A DNA stretch of 17,061 nt from NCBI GenBank assembly GCA_020351835.1, contig CP070669.1, positions 2,107,918-2,124,978 on the forward strand. Direction: 5' to 3'. The position numbers were made by a program, and so were the translations under genes. The notes under the pieces are model-generated. The model made no database searches. It saw only the letters and a program-made list of their open reading frames with translations, and was not told where the DNA came from. Below, piece by piece: positions 1 to 17,061 of the stretch. Within the stretch, counting starts at the first letter, position 1. Each line of letters starts with the position of its first letter. The DNA is from Nitrospirota bacterium. GTDB lineage: Bacteria; Nitrospirota; Thermodesulfovibrionia; Thermodesulfovibrionales; BMS3Bbin05.

Positions 1-2830
1 ACGATTCGGCCTTAGCGTAAGCTATACCGAAATCCGCGTCGATCCCCATCACCTCTCCTGTAGACTTCATCTCGGGGCCGAGGATAGTATCGACATTAGA
101 GAACCTGTCGAAAGGAAAGACAGCCTCCTTCACGGCAATATGCTCTATGACAGGGTCATTAACAAGTCCCAGGTCCTTCAGCTTTCGTCCGGCCATTACC
201 TTAGCTGCCATCTTAGCAAGCGGTATCCCCGTAGCCTTGCTCACATAGGGTATGGTCCTTGAAGCTCTCGGATTGACCTCAAGAATGTAAATATCATTAT
301 CCTTCACGGCGAACTGGACGTTCATCAGGCCTATTACTCCAAGTTCCATGGCAAGCTCTCTGGCCTGTTTCTTTATCTCTTCGACCACCGGTGTCCCGAG
401 CGAATAAGGAGGTATTGAGCACGCCGAGTCACCTGAATGCACTCCCGCCGCCTCGATATGCTCCATGACTCCTCCGATGATGACATCATCTTCATCCGAC
501 AGAGCATCCACATCTACCTCGGTAGCATCCACTATATATTTATCCACAAGTACAGGATGTTCGGGGGAGGCCTTGACTGCCCTTTGCATATAATCTATAA
601 GGGATGCTTCATCATAAACTATCTCCATCGCCCTCCCGCCCAGCACATAAGACGGTCTGACCATACATGGATAACCTATCTCAGAAGCCACACTTACCGC
701 TTCATCAGAGCTCATTGCTGTTCCACTGTCGGGCTGTTTAAGTCCCAGCTTGTGCAGGAGATCTTTGAACCTCTTACGGTCCTCTGCTCTGTCGATGGCA
801 TCTGGAGGTGTGCCAAGTATCTTTACCCCTTCCTTTTCAAGAGGGACGGCAAGCTTAAGAGGTGTCTGCCCTCCGAACTGCACTATTACGCCCTCGGGCC
901 TCTCGACCTCTATTATGTTCATTACATCCTCAAGCGTAAGCGGTTCAAAATATAACCTGTCGGATGTATCATAATCCGTACTGACAGTTTCCGGATTGCA
1001 GTTGACCATTATTGTCTCGAAGTCCTCTTCCTTAAGTGAGAAAACGGCATGTACACAGCAATAGTCGAACTCTATCCCCTGCCCTATCCTGTTAGGGCCG
1101 CTGCCGAGTATCATTACTTTCTTCCTTTCTGAAGGTAACGATTCACATTCTGTGACAGGGGTCTGCGCTTTTTTGCCTTTCAGTATGCTCCTGAACGGCT
1201 TTTCATAAGTGGAATAAAGGTACGGTGTGTACGCTTCGAACTCGGCGGCACAGGTATCGACCATCTTGTAGACGCCTCTCATGCCGGCAGACGCTCTGGC
1301 GCCGCGTATATCTTTCTCTTCAACACCTACCAGCTCAGCTATCCTTCTGTCCGAAAATCCCATGGACTTTGACTTAAGAAGCATATCGCGGTCTTCCATG
1401 ATCCTGTTCCCCTTCTCAGAGATTATCGCTTCGAACTCTACTATCTCGCGCATATTATTAAGGAACCATGGATCGATCATCGTTATCTCATATATCTCGC
1501 CAATGTTCATTCCACGACGGATAGCCTCAGCTACATACCATATCCTGTCGCTGTTAGGCACCTTCATCTTCTCCCTCAGTTCCTCATCGTCACAGTCCCT
1601 GTTCTCCAACCCATAGCTATCCAGTTCGAGGCTCCTTATTGCCTTTTGAAATGACTCCTTAAAAGTCCTTCCTATTGACATGACCTCACCTACGGACTTC
1701 ATCTGGGTCGTAAGCGTCGGGTCGGTCTCCGGGAACTTCTCGAAAGCGAAACGGGGCACCTTGGTCACTACGTAATCTATGGTAGGCTCGAAGCTCGCGG
1801 GGGTCTCTCTCGTTATATCGTTCTTTATCTCGTCAAGGGTAAGCCCTATCGCAAGCTTTGCCGCGATCTTAGCTATGGGGAAACCCGTCGCCTTTGAAGC
1901 AAGCGCTGAGGATCTCGACACACGCGGGTTCATCTCAATAACTACCATCCTGCCGTCCTCAGGGTTAAGGGCGAACTGTATATTACTGCCCCCGGTATCC
2001 ACTCCTATCTCCCTTATGATATCTATAGATGCATCCCTCATCCTCTGATACTCTTTGTCACTCAGGGTCTGTGCCGGGGCAACGGTTATCGAATCACCGG
2101 TGTGAACACCCATCTGGTCAAAATTCTCTATAGAACAGATGATGACGACATTATCGGCATTGTCCCTCATTACTTCGAGCTCGAACTCCTTCCATCCTAT
2201 AATGGATTCTTCAACAAGTACCTGACTGACAGGGCTGAGCTTAAGGGCGTTCTCAAGCAACACTTTATACTCTTCCATATTGTATGCAACGGCCCCTCCG
2301 GTACCTCCCAGCGTGAACGCCGGCCTTAATATAGCAGGGAACCCTATCTTGTCGATTATATCCATACCATCATCCATCTTCTCCACAGCCGCTGACACAG
2401 GCAGGTCAAGACCTATCTTATACATCGCATCCCTGAACAGGTCACGGTCCTCTGCTTTCTTGATGGCCGGAAGCTTCGCCCCGATAAGCTCTACCCCGTA
2501 TTTATCAAGGACACCTCCTTCGGACAGTTCTACGGCGAGATTAAGTGCGGTCTGGCCTCCCATCGTGGGCAGAATAGCGTCAGGCCTTTCCTTCTCTATA
2601 ATGAGCTCAAGTATCTCTTTCGTTAAGGGCTCAACATATGTTGAATCTGCCATCTCGGGGTCGGTCATAATTGTGGCCGGATTGGAGTTCACCAGTATCA
2701 CCCTGTAGCCCTCTTCCCTGAGGGCCTTGCAAGCCTGTGCGCCCGAGTAATCGAACTCGCACGCCTGACCTATCACGATCGGCCCCGACCCGATTATAAG
2801 AATGTTTTTTATGTCATCTCTCTTAGGCAT
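1..2830 (-). CDS. carB: Carbamoyl-phosphate synthase large subunit, C-terminus cut off by the left window edge
   Basis: Reverse-strand frame starting at ATG 2828-2830 reads [29 protein letters not shown]..., the canonical CarB N-terminus. The left end reads ...[27 protein letters not shown], a canonical CarB motif. It is absent from the ORF track because the stop codon is outside the window. Confidence 0.97.
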
Positions 2831-2841
2831 ATATCCTTCTG

Positions 2842-3447
2842 TCAGGTCTTCACCACATAACTGTTCAGAGTATCTACCACTTTTTTTGCCTCGGCATCGG
2901 AAGTAGTCGTGAAAACGACCTGATCGCTGTCTGCAAAGCGGGCAACTACGTTATAGAACTCCTTTACCTCTCCAAAGCCCGGGATCACAGTCCCGTGCTG
3001 AAGCGCTATCTTCTCTACCACGGCCACGCCATCAGGGTTTTCGGGCTCTATCCTTATATATTCGACATCGAACTGTCTTAGTTCGCTAAAGTCTTTTCCA
3101 ATGACCCTGCTTCCCAGGTTCCTTTTAAGGGTAAGAGTGACGACACCTGACCCCTTGTCGACCTCGGTAATAAGAACGGGGGCCTTGAATATGAACGTCC
3201 GGGACAACGGGAATATTATCACAAATATGACCGCTGCAACCAGGTAATGTATAAGACCGATCTCTCCAAGAACAGCCATAGAAATGAGATATATAACGAT
3301 AAACACAGCCGACACAAAACTTGAAGCGAGTTCCTTATTGAATATACCGCTATGAAGGACACTGCCCCTGTCCACCTTAAACGATGATGTCTGAAGCATT
3401 ACACTGTCCGCTCCTGTCCTTATCTCATGTCCTCCTTCAAGTCCCAC
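2842..3447 (-). CDS. Conserved membrane protein of unknown function inserted between carA and carB. The annotated start is GTG; an internal ATG at 3397-3399 is an alternative start.
   Basis: Open frame of 201 aa filling the carA-carB gap. Two hydrophobic segments ([22 protein letters not shown] and [17 protein letters not shown]) are followed by a soluble domain. Short spacing to both neighbours. Confidence 0.75.
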
Positions 3448-8542: not shown

Positions 8543-9247
8543 CTAAAAGCTTTCATCCGTGAACTCAAGGGGGGTGTCAGTAAAGAGAAGCGTGCCGTCG
8601 CTCAGAACGATCTTGAATATCGGCCTGGATATGGCGTCTTTTTTCATCGGCACATAGCTGAACCTTTCCTCACCGCCGTACAGTGCCAGTATCTTTCTTA
8701 CATATTTGTATGTCTCCGTGTTCTTCGAGAAGTTTACTTTCTTCATCACCCTCGTAGGTCCGGCGTTGTATGCGGCAAGGGACTTTCGAAGGTCCCCCTT
8801 GAACATGTCAAGAAGCATCCTGAAGTATCTTACCCCTCCGGAAATGTTCTCCTCAGGGTCGAACGGATCACTAACAGAAAGGGATTTGGCCGTCATAGGC
8901 ATAAGCTGCATCAACCCCATTGCACCCTTTGAGGAGATCGCCTCGGGATACCAGTTCGATTCAACCGTGATCATGGCCCTTATGAGCTCGGGGTCTACGG
9001 AGTATTCTTCAGCTAATCTTTTGGCAATGGGGAAATATTTACCTACGTTCTTATAGAAATTGCCCTTCACCAAATTAAGGCTGTTTGAAGCGTACTGCTT
9101 GGACCTGGATAAAAGGCTTGCACTACCTTCATAAGGGATATCCGAGTACACTATAACACCTTCAGCATTCTCGTACCTGTAAATATCGGCTGTTACCGGA
9201 CTACATAATGATAACAATACAATTAAAAGAATAGAGCTCCTCAACAT
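8543..9247 (-). CDS. Exported lytic transglycosylase (SLT/GEWL domain) with an N-terminal DUF4124-like segment
   Basis: Signal peptide MLRSSILLIVLLSLCSPVTA, then DIYRYENAEGVIVYSDIPYEG, then SLT motifs ITVESNWYPEAISSKGAMGLMQLMPMTA...NISGGVRYFRMLLDMFKGDLRKSLAAYNAGP. The stop codon abuts the nadA start. Confidence 0.93.
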   Translation of the reverse strand: MLRSSILLIVLLSLCSPVTADIYRYENAEGVIVYSDIPYEGSASLLSRSKQYASNSLNLVKGNFYKNVGKYFPIAKRLAEEYSVDPELIRAMITVESNWYPEAISSKGAMGLMQLMPMTAKSLSVSDPFDPEENISGGVRYFRMLLDMFKGDLRKSLAAYNAGPTRVMKKVNFSKNTETYKYVRKILALYGGEERFSYVPMKKDAISRPIFKIVLSDGTLLFTDTPLEFTDESF

Positions 9248-9253
9248 ACTGTG

Positions 9254-9282
9254 ACTATAGCACTATCAGATAAATAAGTCAA
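9254..9282 (-). promoter_or_regulatory. Sigma70-type promoter for the lytic transglycosylase-nadA pair
   Basis: Minus strand TTGACT (9277-9282), 17-nt spacer, TATAGT (9254-9259), ending 6 nt before the ATG at 9245-9247. Confidence 0.65.
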
Positions 9283-9346
9283 TATTTACAATGTGTTATG
9301 GCACCGATATTAAAGCCGGCCCGCTTAAAGGCAACAAGGGGAACTT

Positions 9347-9634
9347 TTAGTGACCTTTTGAAGCATTTATCCTGATAAGAAACACCAGTTCCCCGGCCGA
9401 TTCCTTCGTATCGATCATCTCATGGCCATACCTTCCGGCAAAGGATATCATATCAGCTTTCGATCCCGGGTCCGATGAAATAATCTTAAGGACCTGACCA
9501 TCTGCCATTTGCCCTATCTCCTTTTTAGCACTGAGTACGGGTATGGGACAGTTGAACCCCTTAACATCTAAAGTTCTGTCAGCCCGGTGTTCTTCCTTTA
9601 GTTCATCTGGTCCATTATCTTTATCAATATCCAT
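9347..9634 (-). CDS. TusA-like sulfur carrier/sulfurtransferase family protein
   Basis: 95 aa with the TusA/SirA signature LDVKGFNCPIPVLSAKKEIGQMADGQVLKIISSDPGSKADMISF (CPxP motif). A GGGG-type Shine-Dalgarno lies upstream. Confidence 0.88.
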   Translation of the reverse strand: MDIDKDNGPDELKEEHRADRTLDVKGFNCPIPVLSAKKEIGQMADGQVLKIISSDPGSKADMISFAGRYGHEMIDTKESAGELVFLIRINASKGH

Positions 9635-9777
9635 TAATTACCCCTTTGTCACAGGATAAATCATAATTCTATTCAGGACCAAATTGCAATTCATCTGCAA
9701 TTGATTATAATTCAGATCAAAACCCATAAATACATTTGTCTTGACAAGCCATTGATCTTTCATGTAAAAGTAATAAC

Positions 9778-10086
9778 ATGAAAAGATATAAATCACTTAT
9801 ACCGCTACTCCTGGTCAGTATATTCACTTTTTTTGTTATCGTGCCGGTCAATATTGCTGAGTCAGGTGATGACTGGAAGGATGAACTGAGAGAAGTATGC
9901 TCAAAGGTCCAGATAGCGGATGAGCTCAGTATCAAGGAGCTTCAGGACCTCATAGCTCAGGCAGATGAGCTGACGATCAAGATAAGCACATCAGGGGACA
10001 GAAGGATGAAGATATTCGTGATGAGACTTCAGAAGTGCAAGTCATTTTTTGAGTTTACGATAGAGACAAAAGAGCCAAAGAAGTGA
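9778..10086 (+). CDS. Small exported protein of unknown function
   Basis: 102 aa with signal-peptide-like N-terminus MKRYKSLIPLLLVSIFTFFVIVPVNIAES, charged helical remainder with two cysteines, convergent with the next gene. The overlapping reverse ORF 9717-9935 looks less plausible. Confidence 0.6.
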   Translation: MKRYKSLIPLLLVSIFTFFVIVPVNIAESGDDWKDELREVCSKVQIADELSIKELQDLIAQADELTIKISTSGDRRMKIFVMRLQKCKSFFEFTIETKEPKK

Positions 10087-10100
10087 ACCTGCCGTGTCTG

Positions 10101-11810
10101 TTACTGGGTGCCTATACCACCGACAACAATTGAAGAGTACTTACCTGCAGATACGTCACTTACGACAGATACATCCCACATTCTGACCGGTGCAGGCTTG
10201 ACAGGCTGGTCATGCAGGTCCTTACCCCATACCCATGTAGTCCCGTCGTTCATAAGTGCCAATGTATGATACATACCGGCCGAAACCTTCTTAATACTTC
10301 CTACCCCCGGTATCTTAAAGGCTACCGAACCGTTTGCGTCCTTTTTCCCGAGCTGACCGAACTCATTGCCTCCCCAGGCCCAGACCGAACCGTCCTTCTT
10401 AAGAGCTACGGTATGATAAAGCCCTGCCGATATCCCTATCATCCCTGACAGGCCTGGAACCTTAATTGGCGATGTCCTCATCTTTCGTGACCTGTCCCCC
10501 AGTATTCCGTTAATGTTCCAGCCCCAGGCCCAGACCGAACCGTCAGAACCCTGCGCTACCGTGTGGTGAAGTCCGGCCGAGGCGTTCTTTATGCCTGTAA
10601 GTCCCTTTACATTCACCGGGGCCTCCCTTGATCTAGTCGAACCGTCACCCAACTGCCCCTGGACATTCCATCCCCAGGTGAACACTGATCCGTCCTGCTT
10701 TACGGCCACATTATGGAACATTCCTGCATCTACAGAAACTATGTTATTCAGGCCTTTCACTTTGACAGGTTCATTACTGTCCCTGGTCGACCCGTTACCA
10801 AGCTGACCGTAAGAGTTACCGCCCCATGCCCACACGGACCCGTCAGCGCTGAGAGCTATTGTATGGTACATGCCTGCAGAAACATCCGTTACCCTCATCA
10901 GGTCCTTCACCAGCACCGGGATCTTACTGTCTATGTTGTCGCCGTTGCCAAGCTGTCCACGGTTGTTGCGCCCCCATGTCCAGGCCGATCCATCTGATTT
11001 GATGGCAACAGAATGGTCTACTCCCGAAGCGACACTGATCACGTCTTCCATTCCGCCGATAGGCAAAAGGCCCTCCCTGCTATTATTGCTCCCATCTCCC
11101 AACTGTCCATATTCGTTAAGGCCGCCTGTCATCACCGCACCGGCGACTGCTTTTTTAGGCATCCAGCTCGAACGGACCGGCCACAGGAACTTGTAACTGC
11201 AGGCTGACATATAGTCTATTGTCATCTCTCCGGATGCGATATCAAGGATCCATACGTAGTCGATTATATCCCTGCCGGTAGACGCCGACCAGTAAAAATG
11301 GTTCTGTACACCGTCAAAGGGATGTCCAACCTGAAGAGCAGGATAGAACTTTGACCTGTCTATAAGGGTCTGAAGCTCGTTTATCGCCGGGAGCCTCCAG
11401 TCCGTATATCCGAAATTAGGTCTTATACCGCTGTTCATCTCCTGGATGTACTGTCTGGCACCAAGCCATGGAAGAGGAAGTTTGTGTATATTGGCGTCCT
11501 TCATCCATATAAGCCCGGTATCCCTGTCGAGTACGGTACCGTCCCCATTGTCCGCGAACCTGTGAGAGGTGCCGGAAGAGACCTTTTGAGTGCTTTTCTT
11601 AGACTGAACCTTGCCGGTCTTCTTCTCTGCAGCTGTAGATTGGATTGCAAATGTAAGCGAAAAGAACACGATGGTGACCATGCAGATAAACCTGATCAAA
11701 GGGATTTTTCTTTCGATATCAATCATTTTTATTAGCTCAATACCCTTGTTAACACAAAAACCGGCTTTATTGTAATGAAAGCCGGTCGTCAATATCAAGC
11801 GCTCATACAT
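10101..11810 (-). CDS. Exported DUF1566 (Lcl C-terminal-like) + RCC1/BLIP-II-type beta-propeller repeat protein. The likely start is the internal ATG at 11724-11726.
   Basis: Hydrophobic signal sequence IPLIRFICMVTIVFFSLTFAIQSTAA. DUF1566-like segment RFADNGDGTVLDRDTGLIWMKDA...YTDWRLPAINELQTLID...YWSAST...LWPVRS. Several RCC1 units of type VSAGMYHTIALSADGSVWAWGGNSYGQLGNGSTRDSNEPVKVKGL. Confidence 0.9.
   Translation of the reverse strand: MYERLILTTGFHYNKAGFCVNKGIELIKMIDIERKIPLIRFICMVTIVFFSLTFAIQSTAAEKKTGKVQSKKSTQKVSSGTSHRFADNGDGTVLDRDTGLIWMKDANIHKLPLPWLGARQYIQEMNSGIRPNFGYTDWRLPAINELQTLIDRSKFYPALQVGHPFDGVQNHFYWSASTGRDIIDYVWILDIASGEMTIDYMSACSYKFLWPVRSSWMPKKAVAGAVMTGGLNEYGQLGDGSNNSREGLLPIGGMEDVISVASGVDHSVAIKSDGSAWTWGRNNRGQLGNGDNIDSKIPVLVKDLMRVTDVSAGMYHTIALSADGSVWAWGGNSYGQLGNGSTRDSNEPVKVKGLNNIVSVDAGMFHNVAVKQDGSVFTWGWNVQGQLGDGSTRSREAPVNVKGLTGIKNASAGLHHTVAQGSDGSVWAWGWNINGILGDRSRKMRTSPIKVPGLSGMIGISAGLYHTVALKKDGSVWAWGGNEFGQLGKKDANGSVAFKIPGVGSIKKVSAGMYHTLALMNDGTTWVWGKDLHDQPVKPAPVRMWDVSVVSDVSAGKYSSIVVGGIGTQ
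10110..11090 (-). repeat. Degenerate in-frame tandem repeat array encoding roughly 50-residue RCC1-type units (approximate boundaries, about 7 units)
   Basis: Recurring (D/N)ASAG.YH.VAL..DGSVWAWG.N..GQLG.G......P..V.GL in the translated minus strand. Confidence 0.85.
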
Positions 11811-11932: not shown

Positions 11933-13357
11933 ATGACAATCAAATCTAAGTACTCTCCATTAATCGCGATCATCTTCTTTCTGGCCATCGGTGTTAATTT
12001 CGCATTCGCTGCTAATATGAGCGAGGACTTCGCATTTAAGATCTCGTTAGAGAACCACCTGGAGAAGAGGCTGAAACACATAATCACCGAGATCACCGGA
12101 AGCGACAGGGGTGTCATCATAATCAATGCCGATATCGGCACGGTCAAGGGCGGTGATTCCAACAAAGGAAGTATAACAAAGAAAAAGAGCCAGGATGCGC
12201 TAGTATTGCCCGGAGTTCCGGTAAAGAAAGAGTTCGGTACGGGCCTTAAGGAGACTGCTGAGCTTCTCTTCCCCGGAGCGGGCGGCAGTAAATATAAGGT
12301 AAACAAAATGAGCGTCTCCATATGGCTTGATAAAGGGCTTTCACAGTCAATTGTAGACCTTGTAGATAACCTTGCAAAGCAGGTTGTCGGTTACAACGAG
12401 ACGAGAGGGGATAAGGTTGAAATAGTTCCGATCGACTTCAAGGGAGAGAAGTTCTACTGGTCCTCGATATTCTATCCCAAGAACCTTTTCATACTAGCAC
12501 TTGGCCTTGCGGCGGCCCTTTTCTTTCTCGCTGGAGCGTCGTTCCTGTCGGACCCTCTTAAGAACCTTTCAAACGCAATTGCTTCGGTCGACTGGGACCA
12601 GGTAAGGGGCGCAAACGCAGGGATAGAAGCATATAGCCCCAGCTACGAGATGGAAGAACCCGGAATAAGCAGTGATATTACTGGAGCATACGATGCAGGC
12701 GAGCAGCAGCCTTTCTCTTTCATATCCGAGAGAGACCTCTCTAACCTGTCATATCTTCTTAAAGACAGATCGGCTGAGGATATAGCAACGGTAGCTAACT
12801 TCCTCGAGATAGATCTGGCGGCAAAATTGCTCGAATCTTTCGGCACGGATGAACAGGCAGAGGTTGCCCTGCACCTTAGCAATGAGAAGGTCGACCCGGA
12901 CGGGGTAAAGAAGCTCGAGTCCGAGATAAGAGAACAACTAAGCTACGTTGTCGGGGGAGAGAGGAAGTTCATATCGCTCATGAGACTTTCGGATGATGAT
13001 GTCAGGGAAAAGGCTATGGGCATGATGGAGCAGAAGGACAGGGATACCGCATCCCGACTGAAGACCAGGGTAAAGAGCTTCGATGATACAATATCAGATC
13101 TTCCGGCACAGGGCATAAGGGCACTTTACAGAAGGACCAACCCTCTCATCTTCGCGCAGATCGTAAAAGGCTCGTCAGATAAGGTAATAGAGAAGATCCT
13201 GGGATCGCTCAGTGAGGGCGCGGTCGAAAGGCTCAAGCAGGAGATGGAGCTCAGCCAGCCTCTTTCACCCGGACGCCTTCGCAAAGAAAGAATAAACCTC
13301 ATGATGCGCCTTGCAAGCCTTATGGATGAGGGAGCAATAGAAGGAGTGAACAACTGA
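11933..13357 (+). CDS. Exported/membrane FliF C-terminal-domain + FliG fusion protein (rotor-like)
   Basis: SD GAGAGGGAG before ATG. aa 1-27 signal peptide. aa ~38-70 LENHLEKRLKHIITEITGSDRGVIIINADIG resembles the FliF EKRV...VRVxVNADVDF segment. aa ~123-170 VNKMSVSIWLDKGLSQSIVDLVDNLAKQVVGYNETRGDKVEIVPIDF resembles the FliF C-terminal AVGYDxxRGDxVxVVNMPF block. TM at aa ~184-205. aa ~262-472 is FliG-like, including GG..KFISLMRLSDDDVREKAMGMM, LKTRVKSFDDTISDLPAQGIRALYRR and KGSSDKVIEKILGSLSEGAVERLKQEME...INLMMRLASLMDEG. Confidence 0.82.
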   Translation: MTIKSKYSPLIAIIFFLAIGVNFAFAANMSEDFAFKISLENHLEKRLKHIITEITGSDRGVIIINADIGTVKGGDSNKGSITKKKSQDALVLPGVPVKKEFGTGLKETAELLFPGAGGSKYKVNKMSVSIWLDKGLSQSIVDLVDNLAKQVVGYNETRGDKVEIVPIDFKGEKFYWSSIFYPKNLFILALGLAAALFFLAGASFLSDPLKNLSNAIASVDWDQVRGANAGIEAYSPSYEMEEPGISSDITGAYDAGEQQPFSFISERDLSNLSYLLKDRSAEDIATVANFLEIDLAAKLLESFGTDEQAEVALHLSNEKVDPDGVKKLESEIREQLSYVVGGERKFISLMRLSDDDVREKAMGMMEQKDRDTASRLKTRVKSFDDTISDLPAQGIRALYRRTNPLIFAQIVKGSSDKVIEKILGSLSEGAVERLKQEMELSQPLSPGRLRKERINLMMRLASLMDEGAIEGVNN

Positions 13358-13358
13358 T

Positions 13359-14135
13359 ATGGATTTTATGACTATCATAGGACTGCTCCTCGGCGGCGCA
13401 ACGGTTTATCTCGTAATGCTTCAGGGAAATATTCTTGACATGGTACTTAACCCTGTCGCCGCACTGCTCGTGTTTGGAGGAACTTTCAGCGCTACACTAA
13501 TAGCATATCCGTGGGACCTTATAAAGCAGACCGTTCCATCTTTCAGACTTATGTTCTTCCCTAAGAGGAACACATATGAATATCTTGAGGAGGTCGTTGA
13601 GTCGATGACCTCATTGGCAGAGAAGGCGAGAAGACAGAGCATAGAAAGCCTTCAGGGAGACCTTGGCAAGATAGAGAGCAAGTTCTTTTCGCATGGCATG
13701 CAGATGGTTATAGATGGCCTGGACCCGGCCATAGTCAGGGATAACATGGAAAAAGAGATCCTGTATACCAGACAGAGCTTCCAAAAAGTGTGCGGAGTGT
13801 TCCGTACAATGGCAACACTTTCTCCGATATTCGGGCTTCTCGGTACCCTCATAGGAATAGTCGGGGTCCTCCGCAATCTTGCTGACCCTGCATCTATGGG
13901 AAGCAATATGGCAATCGCTATAACGACCACATTTTATGGTATATTCGCCGCAAACTTTCTTTTTCTGCCGATCTCCATAAAGCTGAACGAACACAGTGAA
14001 CGGGATGTCCTGATCAAGGAACTTATAGCAGAAGGCATTATTGCCATTCACAGCGGTGACCTGCCGCTCATAGTCAGGAAGAAACTCAACGCATTTCTTT
14101 CATCCCACATAAGGGAAAAAAGCGAAAGCAAATAA
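13359..14135 (+). CDS. MotA-like proton/sodium channel stator protein
   Basis: 258 aa: NPVAALLVFGGTFSATLIAYPW, LAEKARRQSIESLQGDL, VIDGLDPAIVRDNMEKEI, TMATLSPIFGLLGTLIGIVGVLRNL...MAIAITTTFYGIFAANFLFLPISIKL. Starts 1 nt after the previous stop. Confidence 0.95.
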   Translation: MDFMTIIGLLLGGATVYLVMLQGNILDMVLNPVAALLVFGGTFSATLIAYPWDLIKQTVPSFRLMFFPKRNTYEYLEEVVESMTSLAEKARRQSIESLQGDLGKIESKFFSHGMQMVIDGLDPAIVRDNMEKEILYTRQSFQKVCGVFRTMATLSPIFGLLGTLIGIVGVLRNLADPASMGSNMAIAITTTFYGIFAANFLFLPISIKLNEHSERDVLIKELIAEGIIAIHSGDLPLIVRKKLNAFLSSHIREKSESK

Positions 14136-14818
14136 TGCTCCTTAAGCGTATCTATTCCGACCAGCACAGAAAAAGGTCGAGCCCATTGTGGCTCATCATA
14201 TTCTCCGACATGAGCACTAATCTCATGCTCTTCTTCCTTATACTCTTCGCCATGACAAGGATGAGCGATCCCGAGAGGCAATTGATGATAGAGGGAATGG
14301 AGCATGCGGTAAGCGATGAGGTAAGGAAGACCGAGCTTAAAGGAGAAAAGCTCCTGAGGCAGATCAAGGATGAAGATGCCATCAGTAACCTGCGGAACGC
14401 AATAACATACGGCAAACTGGCCGGCCACGCAAAACTGGAAGTTGACGAGAACGAGGTAAAGGTCACACTGAACCTGCCGCGTTTCTTTTCTATCGGAAGT
14501 GCGGAACTGAACGACAATATTACCGATGCACTGTCAAGTCTTGCGGAGCCTCTGAGCCGCTTTCCTAATGACATTGTCATAGAGGGCCATACCGATAACG
14601 TGCCTGTAAGGGGCGGGAGATACCGATCGAACTGGGAGCTGTCCGTAGCTCGCGCGGTGAGCGTTATAGATTTCTTTACCAAAAGGGGATTATTGCCGGA
14701 ACAGCTAATATCAGCAGGGTACGGTGAGTACCACCCTGCATACCCTAACGACACTGAAGATAACAGGTCGCGCAATCGACGGATAGAGATCAACATAATA
14801 AGGAAACAGAGGCTATAG
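14135..14818 (+). CDS. MotB-like stator protein with C-terminal OmpA peptidoglycan-binding domain, TM aspartate retained
   Basis: WLIIFSDMSTNLMLFFLILFAM (D25 at the MotB D32 position) and OmpA-like domain IVIEGHTDNVPVRGGRYRSNWELSVARAVSV...NRSRNRRIEI. Overlaps the motA stop by 1 nt (TAATG). Confidence 0.93.
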   Translation: MLLKRIYSDQHRKRSSPLWLIIFSDMSTNLMLFFLILFAMTRMSDPERQLMIEGMEHAVSDEVRKTELKGEKLLRQIKDEDAISNLRNAITYGKLAGHAKLEVDENEVKVTLNLPRFFSIGSAELNDNITDALSSLAEPLSRFPNDIVIEGHTDNVPVRGGRYRSNWELSVARAVSVIDFFTKRGLLPEQLISAGYGEYHPAYPNDTEDNRSRNRRIEINIIRKQRL

Positions 14819-14822
14819 CTAT

Positions 14823-15473
14823 ATGCTATCTTTTACTAAACTTATAATAGCTTCAGAAAGGGACCGCGATGACAGCTCGCTCTGGATGCTTCCCTACAGT
14901 ACCCTGATGCTTATACTGCTCATTTTCTTTGCAATCCTGTTTGTTGATTCATATAAGCAGTCAATAGACTATGAGATGGCTATTGCTGAACTTGACGATA
15001 CGAACGAAGGCCTGAAGAAAGAGATAATCCTTGCCAAGAACATGCAGAAGTATATAAACGATAATAATATGAACGATATCGCGGAGATTAAAGTATCGGC
15101 TCGTTTTATAAAACTTGACCTCAAAAGCCCGGCTCTGTTTGAAAGCGGTTTGGCAGACCTTAAACCGGGTATACTGCCTCTGTTCAGAGAGCTAGCGGAT
15201 AACCTGAAGAATGTAGATAACACTGTCGTGGTAGAGGGCCATACCGATAACATCCCTATACATAACAGGTTCTTCGATTCGAACTGGGAGCTTTCATCTG
15301 CCAGGGCATTCAGTGTATTATATTTCCTTATAAATAAAGAGATCGATCCGGAAAGACTTATTGCCCACGGTTTCGGCGAGTTCAGGCCGATCTTTTCGAA
15401 CGATACAGCGGATAACAGGGCTCGTAACAGACGGATCGAGATCACTATCATAAGGAAGGGTAGAGAAGCATGA
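14823..15473 (+). CDS. Second MotB-like protein with OmpA domain, TM aspartate replaced by Thr
   Basis: WMLPYSTLMLILLIFFAILF followed by VVVEGHTDNIPIHNRFFDSNWELSSARAFSVLYFL...DNRARNRRIEITIIRK. Starts 4 nt after the first MotB-like gene. Confidence 0.9.
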   Translation: MLSFTKLIIASERDRDDSSLWMLPYSTLMLILLIFFAILFVDSYKQSIDYEMAIAELDDTNEGLKKEIILAKNMQKYINDNNMNDIAEIKVSARFIKLDLKSPALFESGLADLKPGILPLFRELADNLKNVDNTVVVEGHTDNIPIHNRFFDSNWELSSARAFSVLYFLINKEIDPERLIAHGFGEFRPIFSNDTADNRARNRRIEITIIRKGREA

Positions 15474-16768
15474 GGAAGATAGCGGTCATACTTGTGCTCT
15501 TAATGAGCTTTTCATCGTCGGCTGATGCCATTACTGCCCGACAGCTGGAGAAGGTAGAGGAACTCAAGACAGAGGCTTTAGAGCTGCTTCGCAAAAAGGA
15601 GTTCGATAAAGCTGTCCCGGTCCTGAATGAGATACTCGCAATAGACCCTCTTGAAAAGACAGCTAACAGGTACCTTAACCTTGCCAAGCAACAGGCGATG
15701 GAGCCTTTCTGCCAGGAGGCGGCCGAGGCTTTCATGAAAGATGATTATGCCAGCGCTATAGACTCATGGGAAAAGATATTAAGGATGAACCCTGGGGATC
15801 AAAGGTTCTCACGCCTGATAGAGATCACAAAGAACCTCGTCTCTGACAAGACCATCGATGAGATGTATTCGCGTGCGAATGACTTTCTAGAAAAGGGCGA
15901 CAGGAACTCGGCTGCCAATGAGCTCGAGAAGATCCTTTCCATTAAACCTTACGACCGGCGTGCACGAGAAATGCTTGCCAAGGCCAAACAGTCGGTCTCA
16001 AGCGCAAAGACCAAGAAACACTACGATCAGGCTGACCAGTATATGAAGCAGAAGAAATACGACCTGGCCATAGAGGAGTGGAACAAAGTACTCGCGATAG
16101 ATGACAGCCAGCAAGCCGCAAAAAGGCTTATTGCATCGGCCATAAGAGAGAAGATACAGATACAGTACTCCGAGGCTGAGAAACTTTACAGGAAGGGCGA
16201 TTACCTTTCCGCGCGCGACAACTACTACAAGATCCTGGTCGATAATCCGACCGATCTTGATGTAAAGACGATCATATCCAACCTTGACGATACCACAAAG
16301 ATCGTAAACCGGATGGATGAAAGAGGAAAGGCTTACGATATCATGAGGACCTCTCTATCCAACCATATAGCGATAGACGGCAACAAGAAAGCGGCCGTAG
16401 CTGCTGCATGGTACGCAGTACAGATAGACCCCCAGAACACTACGGCACTTGCTATCAAGAACTACATGGAAATGAAGTATGCAACTCTCGTAGCTACAAT
16501 GGAACCCCCTATTGGTTCTATGAACATAATCGACCAGTATCTGTTCGCCGCCCTTAACCACATATATGAGGGGCGCTATGATATGTCGATACAGGAAACT
16601 GGGATAGTGATAGCGCTCGACCCGGACAGCCTTCTCGCATGGAAAAGGCTCGGATCGGCTTACTTTGCGATGGGAGAGAAGAAGAAGGCGCGTAATGCGT
16701 GGCAAAGGGCGCTGAAGATAGACCCCAATGATAAAGAGCTGAAACAGTTCATTAAACAGGCAAAATGA
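15470..16768 (+). CDS. Exported tetratricopeptide-repeat protein
   Basis: Signal peptide MRKIAVILVLLMSFSSSADA and multiple TPR units, e.g. YDQADQYMKQKKYDLAIEEWNKVLAIDDSQQAA, YSEAEKLYRKGDYLSARDNYYKILVDNPTD and LLAWKRLGSAYFAMGEKKKARNAWQRALKIDPND. 4-nt overlap with the upstream gene. Confidence 0.93.
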   Translation: MRKIAVILVLLMSFSSSADAITARQLEKVEELKTEALELLRKKEFDKAVPVLNEILAIDPLEKTANRYLNLAKQQAMEPFCQEAAEAFMKDDYASAIDSWEKILRMNPGDQRFSRLIEITKNLVSDKTIDEMYSRANDFLEKGDRNSAANELEKILSIKPYDRRAREMLAKAKQSVSSAKTKKHYDQADQYMKQKKYDLAIEEWNKVLAIDDSQQAAKRLIASAIREKIQIQYSEAEKLYRKGDYLSARDNYYKILVDNPTDLDVKTIISNLDDTTKIVNRMDERGKAYDIMRTSLSNHIAIDGNKKAAVAAAWYAVQIDPQNTTALAIKNYMEMKYATLVATMEPPIGSMNIIDQYLFAALNHIYEGRYDMSIQETGIVIALDPDSLLAWKRLGSAYFAMGEKKKARNAWQRALKIDPNDKELKQFIKQAK

Positions 16769-17061
16769 TGACAAACACAAAATTACTATATAGACTTCTG
16801 CTTTTGGTCCCGGTCGTTATGTTCACGATATCCGTTACCGGCAATGTATCGGCTGCAGACAAGAAAGATTGTCTTGAATGCCATGGAGCCATGACCAAGG
16901 CGACAATAGTGCACAAAGCTATCGATAAAGGGTGCAACTCCTGTCACGGCAACTCACACGCAGGCGGATCGCCGCAGCTTGCACTTAAAGGTGACCAGCC
17001 CAGGCTCTGTTATGACTGTCATAGATCCGGTCAGTTCAGAAAGAAGCACCAGCATGTGCCA
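16765..17061 (+). CDS. Exported multihaem c-type cytochrome (doubled-CXXCH-like), truncated by the right window edge
   Basis: Frame from ATG 16765 (or 16768) reads MMTNTKLLYRLLLLVPVVMFTISVTGNVSAADKKDCLECHGAMTKATIVHKAIDKGCNSCHGNSHAGGSPQLALKGDQPRLCYDCHRSGQFRKKHQHVP. Three CXXCH motifs follow a signal peptide, and it overlaps the TPR gene stop (ATGA). Confidence 0.9.
   Translation, partial: MMTNTKLLYRLLLLVPVVMFTISVTGNVSAADKKDCLECHGAMTKATIVHKAIDKGCNSCHGNSHAGGSPQLALKGDQPRLCYDCHRSGQFRKKHQHVP

Follow-up and report, generated by a model that had tools for sequence, protein, structure and literature searches.

A FliF-FliG fusion protein encoded with MotA, MotB, and TPR proteins: a candidate rotary motor cassette of Nitrospirota

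The stretch of Nitrospirota DNA analysed here (17,061 nt, hereafter the window) encodes a FliF-FliG fusion protein, a MotA, two MotB-type proteins, and an exported TPR protein (Table 1). This cassette probably encodes the part of a flagellar-type motor that generates torque, reduced to a self-standing module operating without a flagellum. If so, it may specify a rotary machine not yet described, one that is encoded beside cytochrome genes instead of other flagellar genes. An earlier note on this DNA had proposed a self-contained ion-driven machine. The rotor and stator homologies, the conservation of the genes as a unit under selection, and the co-variation of an R90-D289-type charge pair all favour that proposal, whereas the Margulisbacteria-type modules, half of which adjoin flagellar genes, count against it.

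Table 1. Features of the cassette and of its conserved neighbours in the window
Feature	Position	Strand	Length	Basis
Small exported protein (signal peptide, two conserved Cys)	9778-10086	+	102 aa	Position and alignment in relatives
RCC1 beta-propeller protein with Lcl_C (DUF1566), exported	10101-11810	-		Pfam WD40_RLD (269 bits), RCC1 x6, Lcl_C (84 bits)
FliF-FliG fusion, candidate one-protein rotor	11933-13357	+	474 aa	ORF; Pfam, NCBIfam, PDB profile search, AF2, Foldseek
N-terminal hydrophobic segment, aa 8-27	11954-12013	+		Hydropathy scan
Periplasmic ring-building motif, FliF RBM3-like, aa 30-170	12020-12442	+		DSSP of models, Foldseek, Pfam
beta1-beta2 insertion with signature L-P-G-V-P, aa 72-118	12146-12286	+		Alignment
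TM2, aa ~179-206	12467-12550	+		Hydropathy; model helix 182-217
FliG middle domain, aa ~258-340, starting at conserved PFSF motif	12704-12952	+		Pfam FliG_M, alignment to T. maritima FliG
FliG C-terminal torque domain, aa 365-470	13025-13342	+		Pfam FliG_C
MotA, flagellar MotA/PomA clade	13359-14135	+	258 aa	ORF; Pfam MotA_ExbB (91.4 bits), MotA_N
MotB: plug, TM helix with channel Asp (FSD), OmpA-like peptidoglycan-binding domain	14135-14818	+	227 aa	ORF; Pfam MotB_plug, OmpA
MotB': MotB architecture, channel Asp replaced (P-Y-S-T-L-M)	14823-15473	+	216 aa	ORF; Pfam OmpA, sub-threshold plug match
Exported TPR protein, partner of the fusion	15470-16768	+	432 aa	ORF; Pfam TPR families, signal peptide
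Start of sixth gene, exported multihaem cytochrome c, cut at window end	16768-17061	+		ATG/stop overlap, CXXCH

Gene order and selection

The five genes lie on the same strand with spacings of 1, -1, 4, and -4 nt and are translationally coupled. The ORF positions bear out the earlier description of five packed genes, and the Pfam inventory confirms that the window contains no flagellar export, rod, hook, or filament genes; its other genes are carB, carA, pyrC, pyrB, pyrR, nadA, and those for an SLT transglycosylase, TusA, and the RCC1 protein. The suggestion that the five genes are self-contained stood only in part: they do form a conserved unit, but it is not closed, as the ATG of a sixth, coupled gene at position 16768 shares 1 nt with the TPR stop codon, and in Nitrospirota the RCC1/Lcl_C protein, the small exported protein, and three multihaem cytochromes also belong to the set.

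Across 18 species-level Nitrospirota genomes, the order RCC1/fusion-MotA-MotB-MotB'-TPR-cytochrome recurs at 16 loci, that is, in every related locus long enough to show it (16/16), and all six cassette genes, with dN/dS values of 0.04 to 0.17, are under purifying selection. Because of this repeated order and these values, the arrangement is far beyond chance. They also weigh heavily against the view that the genes are left over from a lost flagellum, are decaying, and serve no function today. Decay would explain why flagellar genes are represented only in part and why genes look frameshift-split in three long-read MAGs (L014, L016, and L019). However, the split genes are limited to a single long-read series, the MFD MAGs, and this suggests errors of assembly, whereas the window and at least 13 further loci have all six frames intact, the order is kept across species and the core across phyla, and new motifs (LPGVP and the Asp-less MotB') are fixed family-wide. 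We regard decay as highly improbable and already close to refuted.

The rotor-like protein and its stators

From its N to its C terminus, the fusion protein comprises a signal peptide or TM1, a ring-building domain resembling RBM3, TM2, a linker, FliG_M, the Gly-Gly hinge, and FliG_C. Its Pfam matches exceed the gathering cutoffs: FliG_C scores 46.5 bits (cutoff, 23.3), FliG_M 30.9 (25), and YscJ_FliF_C, which spans aa 120 to 169, 28.7 (23.8). Searched against PDB, the family profile retrieves FliG (1lkv; E = 3.8e-30) and FliF (8z5s; E = 0.0027), and Foldseek searches with the AF2 model (pLDDT 83.6) retrieve FliG (E ~5e-10) and the FliF RBM3/S-ring (E = 8e-4 to 5e-3). The FliF/FliG homology that had been proposed from the sequence is thus upheld by profile, solved-structure, and fold searches.

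The N-terminal hydrophobic segment, either a cleavable signal peptide (AFA/AN) or TM1, is seen in most of 147 representatives of the fusion family. The ring-building motif that follows has the order alpha-beta-[insertion]-beta-alpha-beta, with a core pLDDT of 94 to 97, and its residues E40, G56, R158, and D160 are nearly invariant among 138 representatives. The insertion occupies the place of the beta-collar in FliF RBM3 and may form a collar, although its confidence in the monomer models is low; within its signature, P93 is found in 137, G94 in 133, and L92 in 121 of the 138 representatives. Alignment of FliG_M to T. maritima FliG shows that the FliM-binding EHPQR motif is absent; the EHPQ/R columns, which read R-S-A-E/H in the window protein, are variable across the family. 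FliG_N and the FliF domains RBM1 and RBM2 were not found in the fusion by Pfam or PDB profile alignment. FliG_C superimposes on that of a MotAB stator-bound complex (8ucs_H) at 1.5 A over 79 columns; K412 is the equivalent of K264 and E437 that of D289, G429 stands in place of R281, and R448 is invariant. Conservation within the protein is highest in the ring-building motif, the nearly invariant Gly-Gly hinge, and the FliG_C fold.

The best PDB matches of the cassette MotA are flagellar MotA (E = 1.5e-48) and PomA (3.6e-35). TolQ (E = 1e-4) and ExbB (0.04) are far more distant, and a TolQ/ExbB-type assignment was rejected; ZorA gave no match. Both conserved TM prolines align with those of flagellar MotA, and the cytoplasmic torque domain is intact. 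R91 preserves the R90 equivalent, Q99 is found at the E98 equivalent, and all three PomA Na+-site positions are Thr. The channel Asp of MotB is kept in 16 of 16 orthologues. MotB' (dN/dS, 0.04 to 0.12) has an intact OmpA domain; its channel Asp site is occupied by Ser-Thr in each of the 15 Nitrospirota orthologues and by Gly-Asn at L025, a locus of the Elusimicrobiota type. Accordingly, the earlier reading of all three as stator-like genes agrees with their homology in Pfam and PDB searches but has to be qualified for MotB', which lacks the channel Asp.

In Escherichia coli, MotA R90 pairs with FliG D289, and E98 pairs with R281 (PMC7564593, PMC12505986). The D289 equivalent of the fusion is Glu wherever the adjacent MotA has Arg or Lys at the R90 position (Nitrospirota, L025, L029, and L030), and in L026 and L028 both partners are lost together (Tyr and Gln). 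These alignments, in which the coupled loss is one event, support co-variation of the D289-R90-type pair between the fusion and its own MotA. Since the E98-R281 pair has no counterpart and the alignment shows no conservation of the R297 equivalent, the interface differs from the canonical one.

The loss of half of the canonical torque-interface charges would fit a non-rotating envelope complex, in which MotA, MotB, and MotB' would act as an energiser of the Tol/Ton kind or as a tether to peptidoglycan and the FliG-like domain would only dock or gate, for example, as an ion-motive force sensor or a cell-wall anchor for a periplasmic TPR/cytochrome assembly. The two OmpA-type anchors and a MotB' unable to bind the coupling ion are consistent with such a complex, as are the envelope, polysaccharide, and signalling genes (Wzy_C, PMT_2, and GGDEF) that often adjoin related loci and the family members without nearby motAB (L027, L032, and the P0172 context have none within 10 kb), which suggest an own role for the TPR-fusion pair. 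We nevertheless find this unlikely: the parts of the fusion conserved best are those listed above, MotA belongs to the flagellar clade and retains its torque domain, and the R90/D289-type pair is kept and co-varies. In addition, all MotA5B2-type units with solved structures are, to our knowledge, rotary.

Distribution, genomic context, and proposed machine

The fusion is one of many members of an unnamed family, which has 734 matches at E <= 1e-30 and at least 150 clusters at 50% identity; nearly all of the top 150 of the 734 representatives are full-length and share the same TM-LPGVP-TM-FliG_MC plan. A pattern-based genome scan, which could miss some members, found the family in Nitrospirota in uncultured MAGs only and not in the cultured flagellated genera of this phylum. 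The family is also present in Elusimicrobiota and Margulisbacteria; its genes nearly always adjoin an orthologous TPR gene, and motAB is usually near; the core that is constant across phyla comprises only the TPR-fusion pair, usually with motAB. The C-terminal ~240 aa of the TPR protein are colinear with fusion-adjacent TPR genes of other phyla (E = 1.5e-28 to 2e-21), and this protein was shown to be periplasmic and orthologous wherever the fusion family occurs.

In 18 Nitrospirota genomes, the cytochrome, the RCC1/Lcl_C gene, and the small exported ORF are conserved with the cassette. The visible 98 aa of the sixth-gene product contain 3 CXXCH motifs; full-length orthologues have 485 to 491 aa, 19 CXXCH motifs, and nine Paired_CXXCH_1 matches. 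This cytochrome gene directly follows the TPR gene in 12 of 15 loci, and the downstream set encodes the 19-haem and two 6-haem periplasmic cytochromes, a link to the cassette that consists in gene order and holds for Nitrospirota only. Hence, where the earlier note had envisaged a normal flagellar cluster beyond the right edge as a refuting result, related loci carry cytochromes instead. An RCC1/Lcl_C orthologue (48 to 65% identity) lies divergently upstream of the fusion in 15 of the 16 Nitrospirota loci extending that far; the true start of this gene in the window is probably the Met at about 11726. The small exported protein, which has no Pfam family, keeps its gene position and 20 invariant columns in relatives whose fusion proteins are 42% and 56% identical.

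Those two relatives have no flagellar genes within 10 kb of the fusion, and tblastn searches with 12 flagellar proteins detected none in the ~400 kb of flanks searched around 24 related loci. None are found near the 16 Nitrospirota loci, L025, or L027 to L030, and this argues against an accessory or alternative rotor associated with the flagellum, in which the fusion and its dedicated stators would form an extra ring or second rotor in the ordinary motor of the host. Every part does derive from flagellar proteins, and the distant Margulisbacteria-type subgroup has its module among flagellar genes in two of four contexts: in L026, TPR-fusion-MotA-MotB is directly followed by a fliK-like gene, flhB-C, flgF, flgG, flgA, flgH, flgI, and fliE, and in L031, the module is embedded between flagellar genes of the same type. 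Because of these loci, a flagellar link of the family as a whole stays conceivable. In L029 and L030, motAB is preceded by the gene for FlbD, a small protein of flagellar operons. However, free-living Elusimicrobiota without flagellar structural genes retain motAB, flbD, and fliG homologues (preprint), a pattern matched by L025, L029, and L030; the other two Margulisbacteria-type contexts lack flagellar adjacency; the pattern-based genome scan, with its chance of missed members, gave none in the cultured flagellated genera of Nitrospirota; and the fusion lacks the known docking surfaces, namely, FliG_N for FliF, EHPQR for FliM, and RBM1/2 for the export gate. An accessory rotor thus seems to us improbable, about as much so as a non-rotating complex.

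For the self-standing motor that we favour, we envisage that the fusion protein would oligomerise into a membrane ring with an S-ring/collar-like cup on its periplasmic face and a ring of FliG_C domains on its cytoplasmic face. MotA5 units would contain MotB, possibly as a MotB/MotB' heterodimer, and would be held on peptidoglycan through the OmpA domains and positioned by the TPR protein. Conducting H+ or Na+, these stators would push FliG_C through the R90-D289-type charge pair and so turn the ring, and the FliM/FliN switch, export gate, rod, and hook would have no part in the machine. Its mechanical output would pass to lineage-specific envelope partners, in Nitrospirota presumably the RCC1/Lcl_C beta-propeller, the small Cys protein, and the three periplasmic cytochromes. 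Candidate outputs are surface movement, envelope or polymer handling, and the positioning or assembly of the cytochrome apparatus.

Comparison with known systems

In its rotor protein, the cassette shares with the flagellar motor core (FliF MS-ring, FliG, and MotA5MotB2/PomAB) the RBM3-type domain, the Gly-Gly hinge, and the middle and C-terminal domains of FliG. On the stator side, it shares a MotA of the flagellar clade that keeps the R90 equivalent and a MotB in which the plug, the channel Asp, and the OmpA-like domain are all present; the D289/R90-type pair is likewise retained. Unlike that core, it combines the rotor functions in one 474-aa chain without RBM1/RBM2, FliG_N, or EHPQR, lacks the E98/R281 pair, and has a second, Asp-less MotB, an obligatory TPR partner, and cytochrome and beta-propeller neighbours, with no genes for fliM/fliN, export apparatus, rod, hook, or filament nearby. 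The NCBIfam equivalog scores of its proteins are all far below the cutoffs.

The alpha-beta-beta-alpha-beta ring-building motif is also that of SctJ/PrgK of injectisomes and SpoIIIAG of sporulation, and SpoIIIAG, like FliF RBM3, has an insertion between the first two strands. However, these proteins have no FliG domains or stator partners, and the ring matches among the top 50 fold matches of the fusion are all FliF RBM3/S-ring, with no SctJ/PrgK or SpoIIIAG. Covalent 1:1 joining of FliF to FliG is known from engineered or spontaneous fusions in Salmonella and Vibrio, which assemble MS-ring-like rings (PMC10941966, PMC11481574, PMC6079021). Those laboratory-made proteins unite full-length FliF and full-length FliG (about 900 aa; the PDB 8z4d chain has 945 aa) inside a complete flagellum, whereas the cassette protein is natural, half the size, outside a flagellar locus, and devoid of the FliF C-terminal tail and FliG_N, the region at which those proteins are joined.

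The genetic tie between the exported TPR protein and the stator genes recalls PflA/PflB of Campylobacter, TPR arrays that hold 17 stator units round the rotor (PMC12222027). NCBIfam and Pfam gave generic TPR matches only and revealed no sequence relationship to PflA/PflB. The cassette protein also differs from these in that it accompanies the rotor protein more constantly than any other partner, even at loci without an adjacent motAB.

Use of a MotAB-type unit for purposes other than swimming is shared with ExbBD-TonB, TolQR-TolA, AglRQS (Myxococcus gliding), GldLM (gliding and T9SS), and ZorAB (Zorya defence). The combination of one A type with two different B types resembles AglRQS, for which a 5:2 AglR5-AglQ-AglS motor with a heterodimeric B pair has been predicted (PMC11761067), and loci related to the cassette carry genes for giant surface proteins, CHU_C/PorV, and Roadblock, a likeness to gliding systems. 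None of these machines has a FliG ring; they exert their action by way of a periplasmic B-subunit arm or of a partner (TonB, TolA, GldM, or the ZorA tail), whereas in the cassette a MotA of the flagellar clade is paired, on the cytoplasmic side, with a FliG_C domain.

Architecture of the FliF-FliG fusion protein and its stators

The first gene of the cassette encodes a protein, hereafter the fusion, that scores above the Pfam gathering thresholds for FliG_C (46.5 bits; threshold 23.3), FliG_M (30.9 bits; threshold 25), and YscJ_FliF_C (28.7 bits; threshold 23.8). Searched against the PDB, a profile of 28 fusion orthologues retrieves T. maritima FliG_MC with an E value of 3.8e-30 and FliF chains with E values of 0.0027 and 0.0042. 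The AlphaFold2 monomer model (138 family representatives) has a mean pLDDT of 83.6, with values of 94 to 98 in the folded domains; in Foldseek it matches FliG structures (E of ~5e-10), and its FliG_C domain superposes on that of the MotAB-FliG complex (8ucs_H) with an rmsd of 1.5 Å. The periplasmic domain matches the FliF RBM3/S-ring/collar entries 6scn, 6sd1, 7cg7, and 8z4d (E from 8e-4 to 2e-2, mostly <5e-3; probability, 1.00; TM(target), ~0.5), with no injectisome or sporulation ring proteins among its top 50 Foldseek matches. The FliF/FliG homology proposed in the earlier note is thus upheld by Pfam, by the PDB profile search, and by AlphaFold2 with Foldseek.

Even so, the fusion is not an equivalog of either FliG or FliF: it reaches only 48.5 bits against TIGR00207 (FliG; cutoff, 226.7), covering profile positions 108-302 only, and 22.5 bits against TIGR00206 (FliF; cutoff, 129.75). 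FliG_N, which binds the C terminus of FliF, has no Pfam match in the fusion. The EHPQR motif, through which FliG_M binds FliM, is absent, the T. maritima E-H-P-Q...R columns being occupied by R-S-A-E...H and variable across the family. RBM1 and RBM2 of FliF, which house the export gate, are absent as well, and the periplasmic region of ~150 aa contains a single RBM. All flagellum-specific docking surfaces are lost, and the ring-building, hinge, and, in part, torque elements are retained. Conservation among the 138 representatives is highest at E40, P93/G94 (Pro in 137 of 138), R158-G159-D160, F261 (in PFSF), G341-G342, and G467, positions that mark out the ring-building domain in the periplasm and the hinge of FliG.

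Judged by its sequence relationships, gene 2 encodes a MotA of the flagellar clade rather than a protein of the TolQ/ExbB type. It matches MotA_ExbB (91.4 bits) and MotA_N (30.6 bits), and among solved structures it is closest to flagellar MotA (E = 1.5e-48) and PomA (E = 3.6e-35); a Tol/Ton reading was rejected on the much poorer values for TolQ (E = 1e-4) and ExbB (E = 0.04). All nine NCBIfam matches, including those to named flagellar stator equivalogs, fall below their cutoffs, the best being PRK08124 with 183.7 bits (cutoff, 340). Gene 3 encodes a complete MotB, with the plug (MotB_plug, 38.6 bits), an OmpA domain (63.8 bits), and the transmembrane Asp, present in 16 of 16 orthologues. 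The gene 4 product, MotB', has the same architecture and an intact OmpA domain (68.1 bits), and its channel Asp is replaced by Thr, in the context P-Y-S-T-L-M, in all 15 Nitrospirota orthologues; the Elusimicrobiota-type locus L025 has Asn there (P-Y-G-N-L-M). In Vibrio, PomA residues T158, T185, and T186 are essential for Na+ conduction (PMC6677748). The window's MotA carries Thr at all three equivalent positions (T163, T190, and T191), which hints at Na+ coupling; the T185-equivalent position is Ala in many MotA orthologues. Membership in the Zorya systems, whose ZorA has a long cytoplasmic tail, was also considered and rejected: MotA has no PADLOC match, to ZorA or otherwise, the ZorB models (62-78 bits) are outscored by flagellar MotB/MotD models (142-149 bits), and ZorC/D/E-type effector genes are absent.

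In E. coli, according to two studies (PMC7564593, PMC12505986), MotA R90 interacts with FliG D289 and E98 interacts with R281. Eleven pairs of fusion and MotA sequences were compared at these positions by alignment with T. maritima FliG and Clostridium MotA, respectively. The D289 equivalent is Glu and the R90 equivalent is Arg or Lys in the Nitrospirota and in loci L025, L029, and L030, whereas these positions are Tyr and Gln, respectively, in the Margulisbacteria-type loci L026 and L028. In the window they correspond to E437, invariant in Nitrospirota, and R91, conserved in Nitrospirota (Lys in locus L013). This paired replacement, a single coupled event, suggests that one canonical charge pair (D289-R90) has been kept and co-varies. 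The E98-R281 pair, by contrast, appears from the alignments to have been abandoned. At the R281 position the eleven pairs have Gly, Ser, or Ala, the window's fusion having an invariant Gly; at the E98 position their MotA proteins have Gln, Ala, or Val, with Glu in L029 and L030. The E98 equivalent is Gln in the six Nitrospirota of the residue table and Ala or Ser in some of the 16 orthologues aligned with MAFFT. At the remaining positions of the charged ridge on the torque helix, K264 corresponds to K412 (Lys kept) and D288 to Gln or Glu, and the R297 equivalent is a nonconserved Ser by HMM and MAFFT alignment, with an invariant Arg (R448) three residues downstream.

Gene neighborhood in Nitrospirota

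The five plus-strand genes are closely packed, as first described, with spacings of 1, -1, 4, and -4 nt (see the table below); the protein identifier in the source Nitrospirota MAG is JSV21_11255. A ribosome-binding site, GAGGGAG, precedes the first ATG, and the base-composition skew changes sign at ~11.9 kb, which fits a divergent transcription unit. In the 122-nt divergent intergenic region, a promoter scan gave weak sigma-70-like matches only, and inspection by eye found no sigma-28 or sigma-54 motif. The fifth gene encodes a TPR protein with a Sec-type signal peptide. Its stop codon is overlapped by the ATG of a sixth gene, which is translationally coupled to it and encodes an exported multihaem cytochrome; full-length orthologues of the latter have 485-491 aa, 19 CXXCH motifs, and nine Paired_CXXCH_1 units.

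Positions of the features discussed, in nucleotides of the window or of the named locus, or in residues of the fusion protein
Feature	Sequence	Position	Strand	Length	Remark
Predicted membrane protein	window	2842-3447	-	201 aa	no Pfam family
SLT lytic transglycosylase	window	8543-9247	-		N-terminal DUF4124
Exported protein	window	9778-10086	+	102 aa	two conserved Cys, no known family
RCC1/Lcl_C protein	window	10101-11810	-		exported RCC1 beta-propeller + Lcl_C (DUF1566)
Gene 1, fusion	window	11933-13357	+	474 aa	
Gene 2, MotA	window	13359-14135	+	258 aa	
Gene 3, MotB	window	14135-14818	+	227 aa	
Gene 4, MotB'	window	14823-15473	+	216 aa	
Gene 5, TPR protein	window	15470-16768	+	432 aa	
Sixth gene, cytochrome	window	16768-17061	+		ORF cut at window end
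Signal/TM1	fusion	8-27			hydrophobic segment
Ring-building motif	fusion	30-170			alpha-beta-[47-aa insertion]-beta-alpha-beta, from the model
Candidate collar insertion	fusion	72-118			low confidence in monomer prediction
TM2	fusion	~180-206			
Linker, then FliG_M	fusion	C-terminal to TM2			linker partly disordered
Gly-Gly hinge	fusion	G341 G342			invariant; between FliG_M and FliG_C
FliG_C	fusion	C-terminal domain			
Multihaem cytochrome	L021	3831-5693	-	620 aa	internal OmpA-like domain
Large protein 3' of fusion	L027	13138-15630			
MotA fused to MotB TM/plug segment	L028	11447-12649		400 aa	no OmpA domain
Giant protein preceding TPR gene	L029	1-8208		8833 aa	
Large protein 3' of fusion	L029	11955-15230			
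Large protein 3' of fusion	L030	12159-15731			
Large protein 3' of fusion	L032	6070-8970			

A scan of one genome per species found 19 loci in 18 genomes, all of them uncultured Nitrospirota or unclassified bins. The order fusion-MotA-MotB-MotB'-TPR is kept in 16 of 16 sufficiently long loci. The RCC1/Lcl_C gene lies divergently upstream of the fusion gene in 15 of 16 loci, and a multihaem cytochrome of ~490 aa is encoded directly 3' of the TPR gene in 12 of 15. In two diverged Nitrospirota genomes, the sixth-gene orthologue is followed by two six-haem Cytochrome_C7 proteins, and the ORF for the 102-aa exported protein keeps its position, convergent with the RCC1 gene. The outer flanks differ, with sulfur-carrier and amino-acid genes in one of these genomes and, in the other, additional cytochromes next to a sigma-54 two-component pair, so that the conserved block comprises the small ORF, RCC1, and fusion-MotA-MotB-MotB'-TPR-MHC19-MHC6-MHC6 (MHC19 and MHC6 being the 19-haem and six-haem cytochromes). 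The idea of a self-contained five-gene unit therefore holds for the gene order but not for its extent: the unit is larger, with a sixth, coupled cytochrome gene, the RCC1 gene, and the small ORF. In locus L021, the 620-aa cytochrome gene lies upstream of the cassette and adjoins another multihaem cytochrome gene and a gene for an NHL beta-propeller.

The gene set is conserved under purifying selection, dN/dS in closely related pairs being 0.04-0.17 for all six genes, MotB' included. These values led us to reject the view of the cassette as a decaying relic, which we rate as highly improbable. Separately, in L014, L016, and L019, which come from MFD long-read MAGs, cassette genes appear split by frameshifts into two or three ORFs, probably through long-read assembly error rather than pseudogenisation.

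The remaining genes of the window are carB (running off the left edge), carA, pyrC, pyrB, pyrR, and nadA and those for the 201-aa membrane protein, the SLT lytic transglycosylase, a TusA-like protein, the 102-aa exported protein, and the RCC1/Lcl_C protein. The pyrimidine operon is standard except for the membrane protein gene inserted between carB and carA (carB-x-carA-pyrC-pyrB-pyrR). In NCBIfam, the transglycosylase is matched best by the catalytic domain of a flagellar-assembly transglycosylase from spirochaetes, at 81.6 bits (cutoff, 234), and the window's transglycosylase gene is not adjacent to the cassette in other genomes. The GC content dips to 0.40 at 9000-10000 (window mean, ~0.48), in the intergenic region between the TusA gene and the small ORF, where the housekeeping genes give way to the conserved block.

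Distribution and genomic contexts of the fusion family

An exhaustive HMMER search over 1.84 billion representatives identified 734 fusion-family proteins at E<=1e-30, extending a family that had stayed at 43-58 clusters in word-indexed profile searches with wider alignments. The best 150 of these 734 all have E<=1e-65. With few exceptions, their alignments span the full profile, their lengths run from 430 to 734 aa, and their layout is the same: an N-terminal hydrophobic segment, L-P-G-[VIY]-P near residue 90, a TM segment near 180-220, and FliG_MC. The few representatives with taxonomic names come from Nitrospirota, Elusimicrobiota, and Candidatus Margulisbacteria. Two members, P0168 and P0211, carry the NCBI labels "Thermoproteota archaeon" and "Thermoprotei archaeon"; given the bacterial MotAB partners of the family, these most likely reflect mis-binning.

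Outside Nitrospirota, the surroundings of the fusion gene are diverse. Thus, L025 has the order TPR (842 aa)-fusion-MotA-MotB-MotB' (Asp-less), followed by sensor kinase/GGDEF genes. L029 encodes a TPR protein, a fusion with a C-terminal TPR, and a coiled-coil protein of ~1100 aa, with FlbD-MotA-MotB close by; its neighbors include Wzy_C/PMT_2 and HEAT genes, a Kelch beta-propeller gene near the fusion module, and a gene for a giant protein that precedes the TPR gene. L030 is similar but lacks the giant protein. In L027 and L032, a TPR or AAA gene, the fusion gene, and a gene for a large uncharacterized protein follow one another, and motAB is missing within 10 kb; near the L027 module lie a Roadblock/LC7 gene and T9SS-type cargo/PorV genes. 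Members of the 630-700-aa subfamily carry a C-terminal TPR extension, and the gene after theirs invariably encodes a large protein (830-1190 aa) that belongs to no family; those of L027, L029, and L030 show weak coiled-coil-type Pfam matches only. L028 has the arrangement TPR-fusion-MotA::MotB (TM only). The C-terminal ~240 residues of the window's TPR protein are colinear with the TPR proteins of L030, L027, L029, and L025 (E from 1.5e-28 to 2e-21). The TPR genes next to the fusion gene are thus orthologous, and the constant core is TPR plus fusion, usually with motAB.

In agreement with the earlier note, ORF and Pfam analysis of the window found no gene for flagellar export (flhAB, fliPQR), for the rod or hook (flgB-G, flgE), or for the filament; nor did it find one for the switch (fliMN). 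Beyond the right edge, where a flagellar cluster had been set as the refuting test, a near-identical contig and relatives carry the cytochrome gene and no such cluster. No flagellar genes lie within 10 kb in four further loci (L021 to L024), and tblastn with twelve flagellar proteins (FlgF, FlgG, FlgA, FlgH, FlgI, FliE, FliK-like, FlhB-C, a sigma factor, and others) gave no match in ~400 kb covering 25 loci and the window. The Margulisbacteria-type subgroup, ~23% identical and with the motif ILPGYP, includes two loci of another kind: in L026, TPR-fusion-MotA-MotB is directly followed by flagellar rod, ring, and export genes, and in L031 the fusion module is embedded between flagellar rod/ring/export-type genes. 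These contexts point to an evolutionary connection with flagellar loci, if to nothing more, and leave a role of the module as a flagellar accessory or alternative rotor in play as a rival reading. Two further Margulisbacteria-type contexts have no flagellar gene nearby, and we consider such a role unlikely.

Literature searches for natural FliF-FliG fusions, FliG paralogues, and orphan motAB/fliG returned a single passing remark on Elusimicrobiota, and those for FliF-FliG fusions returned engineered Salmonella or Vibrio proteins only. A preprint reports that free-living Elusimicrobiota without flagellar structural genes keep motAB, flbD, and fliG homologues, a gene set that matches L029 and L030. 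The fusion system is widespread in uncultured phyla and was essentially undescribed before.

A putative minimal rotor-stator machine

The MS-ring formed by FliF is a ~33-34-mer with a beta-collar. On the basis of the observed domain content, topology signals, and conserved gene set, we propose that the fusion would assemble into a ring in the membrane, with its RBM3-like domains arranged on the periplasmic side as a cup resembling the S-ring, the LPGVP insertion taking the place of the FliF beta-collar, and its FliG_C domains making up a torque ring in the cytoplasm at a fixed 1:1 stoichiometry. MotA5 units with MotB, or with a MotB/MotB' heterodimer, may bind peptidoglycan and be positioned by the TPR protein; ion flow would then rotate MotA against FliG_C and turn the ring. 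There are precedents for ring formation by FliF-FliG fusions (PMC10941966, PMC6079021), for TPR proteins as stator scaffolds, in PflA/PflB (PMC12222027), and for two different B subunits, in the predicted AglR5-AglQ-AglS motor (PMC11761067). The earlier interpretation, a non-flagellar rotary motor, is largely right as to the homologies, the gene set, and the lack of flagellar neighbors and incomplete as to the size of the unit; rotation, and independence from a flagellum in this host, are proposed features of the machine. The alternative of a non-rotating energiser or anchor is given a low probability.

Candidate partners of the proposed motor are the beta-propeller protein and multihaem cytochromes in Nitrospirota and giant surface proteins, coiled-coil proteins, Wzy_C/PMT_2, and GGDEF/response-regulator genes elsewhere. 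This change of partners from lineage to lineage points to a motor of general use whose envelope cargo can be exchanged. In its boldest form, the proposal is that the family represents an unrecognised class of rotary nanomachine, a fusion ring spun by MotA/MotB/MotB' and capped by the TPR protein, without secretion or filament, that arose as a pre-flagellar rotor-stator offshoot or by early exaptation and in Nitrospirota serves periplasmic or extracellular multihaem cytochromes, e.g., by assembling, extruding, or moving their arrays. This full picture is speculative, and we regard it as rather improbable. If it is true, extracellular electron transfer would be tied to ion-motive force in a manner not known for any organism, and the possible mechanical link to multihaem cytochromes is one reason for interest in the module. 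It is also a candidate mechanism for energy-dependent envelope processes in Nitrospirota, Elusimicrobiota, and Margulisbacteria and could cover the puzzling motAB/fliG of non-flagellated, possibly magnetotactic Elusimicrobiota. Annotation pipelines name the fusion proteins "flagellar motor switch protein FliG," so that motility by flagella is predicted from genomes more often than is warranted.

FliG and FliF are regarded as flagellum-specific, and, to our knowledge, all known non-flagellar motors of the MotAB type (Ton, Tol, gliding, T9SS, and Zorya) have no FliG ring. A module that is conserved, under selection, and spread over several phyla, and that has kept no more than the rotor ring, torque interface, and stators, would be a minimal rotor-stator pair made by nature. 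It would be much less complex than the flagellar basal body and of use in structural and single-molecule torque work, as well as a test case for the evolution of the flagellar motor: were rotor and stator together before the export apparatus and filament? Judged by its sequence features, the system is best seen as a variant form of the rotor-stator arrangement of flagella, one that is natural, minimal, and fused and that lacks the switch and export apparatus.
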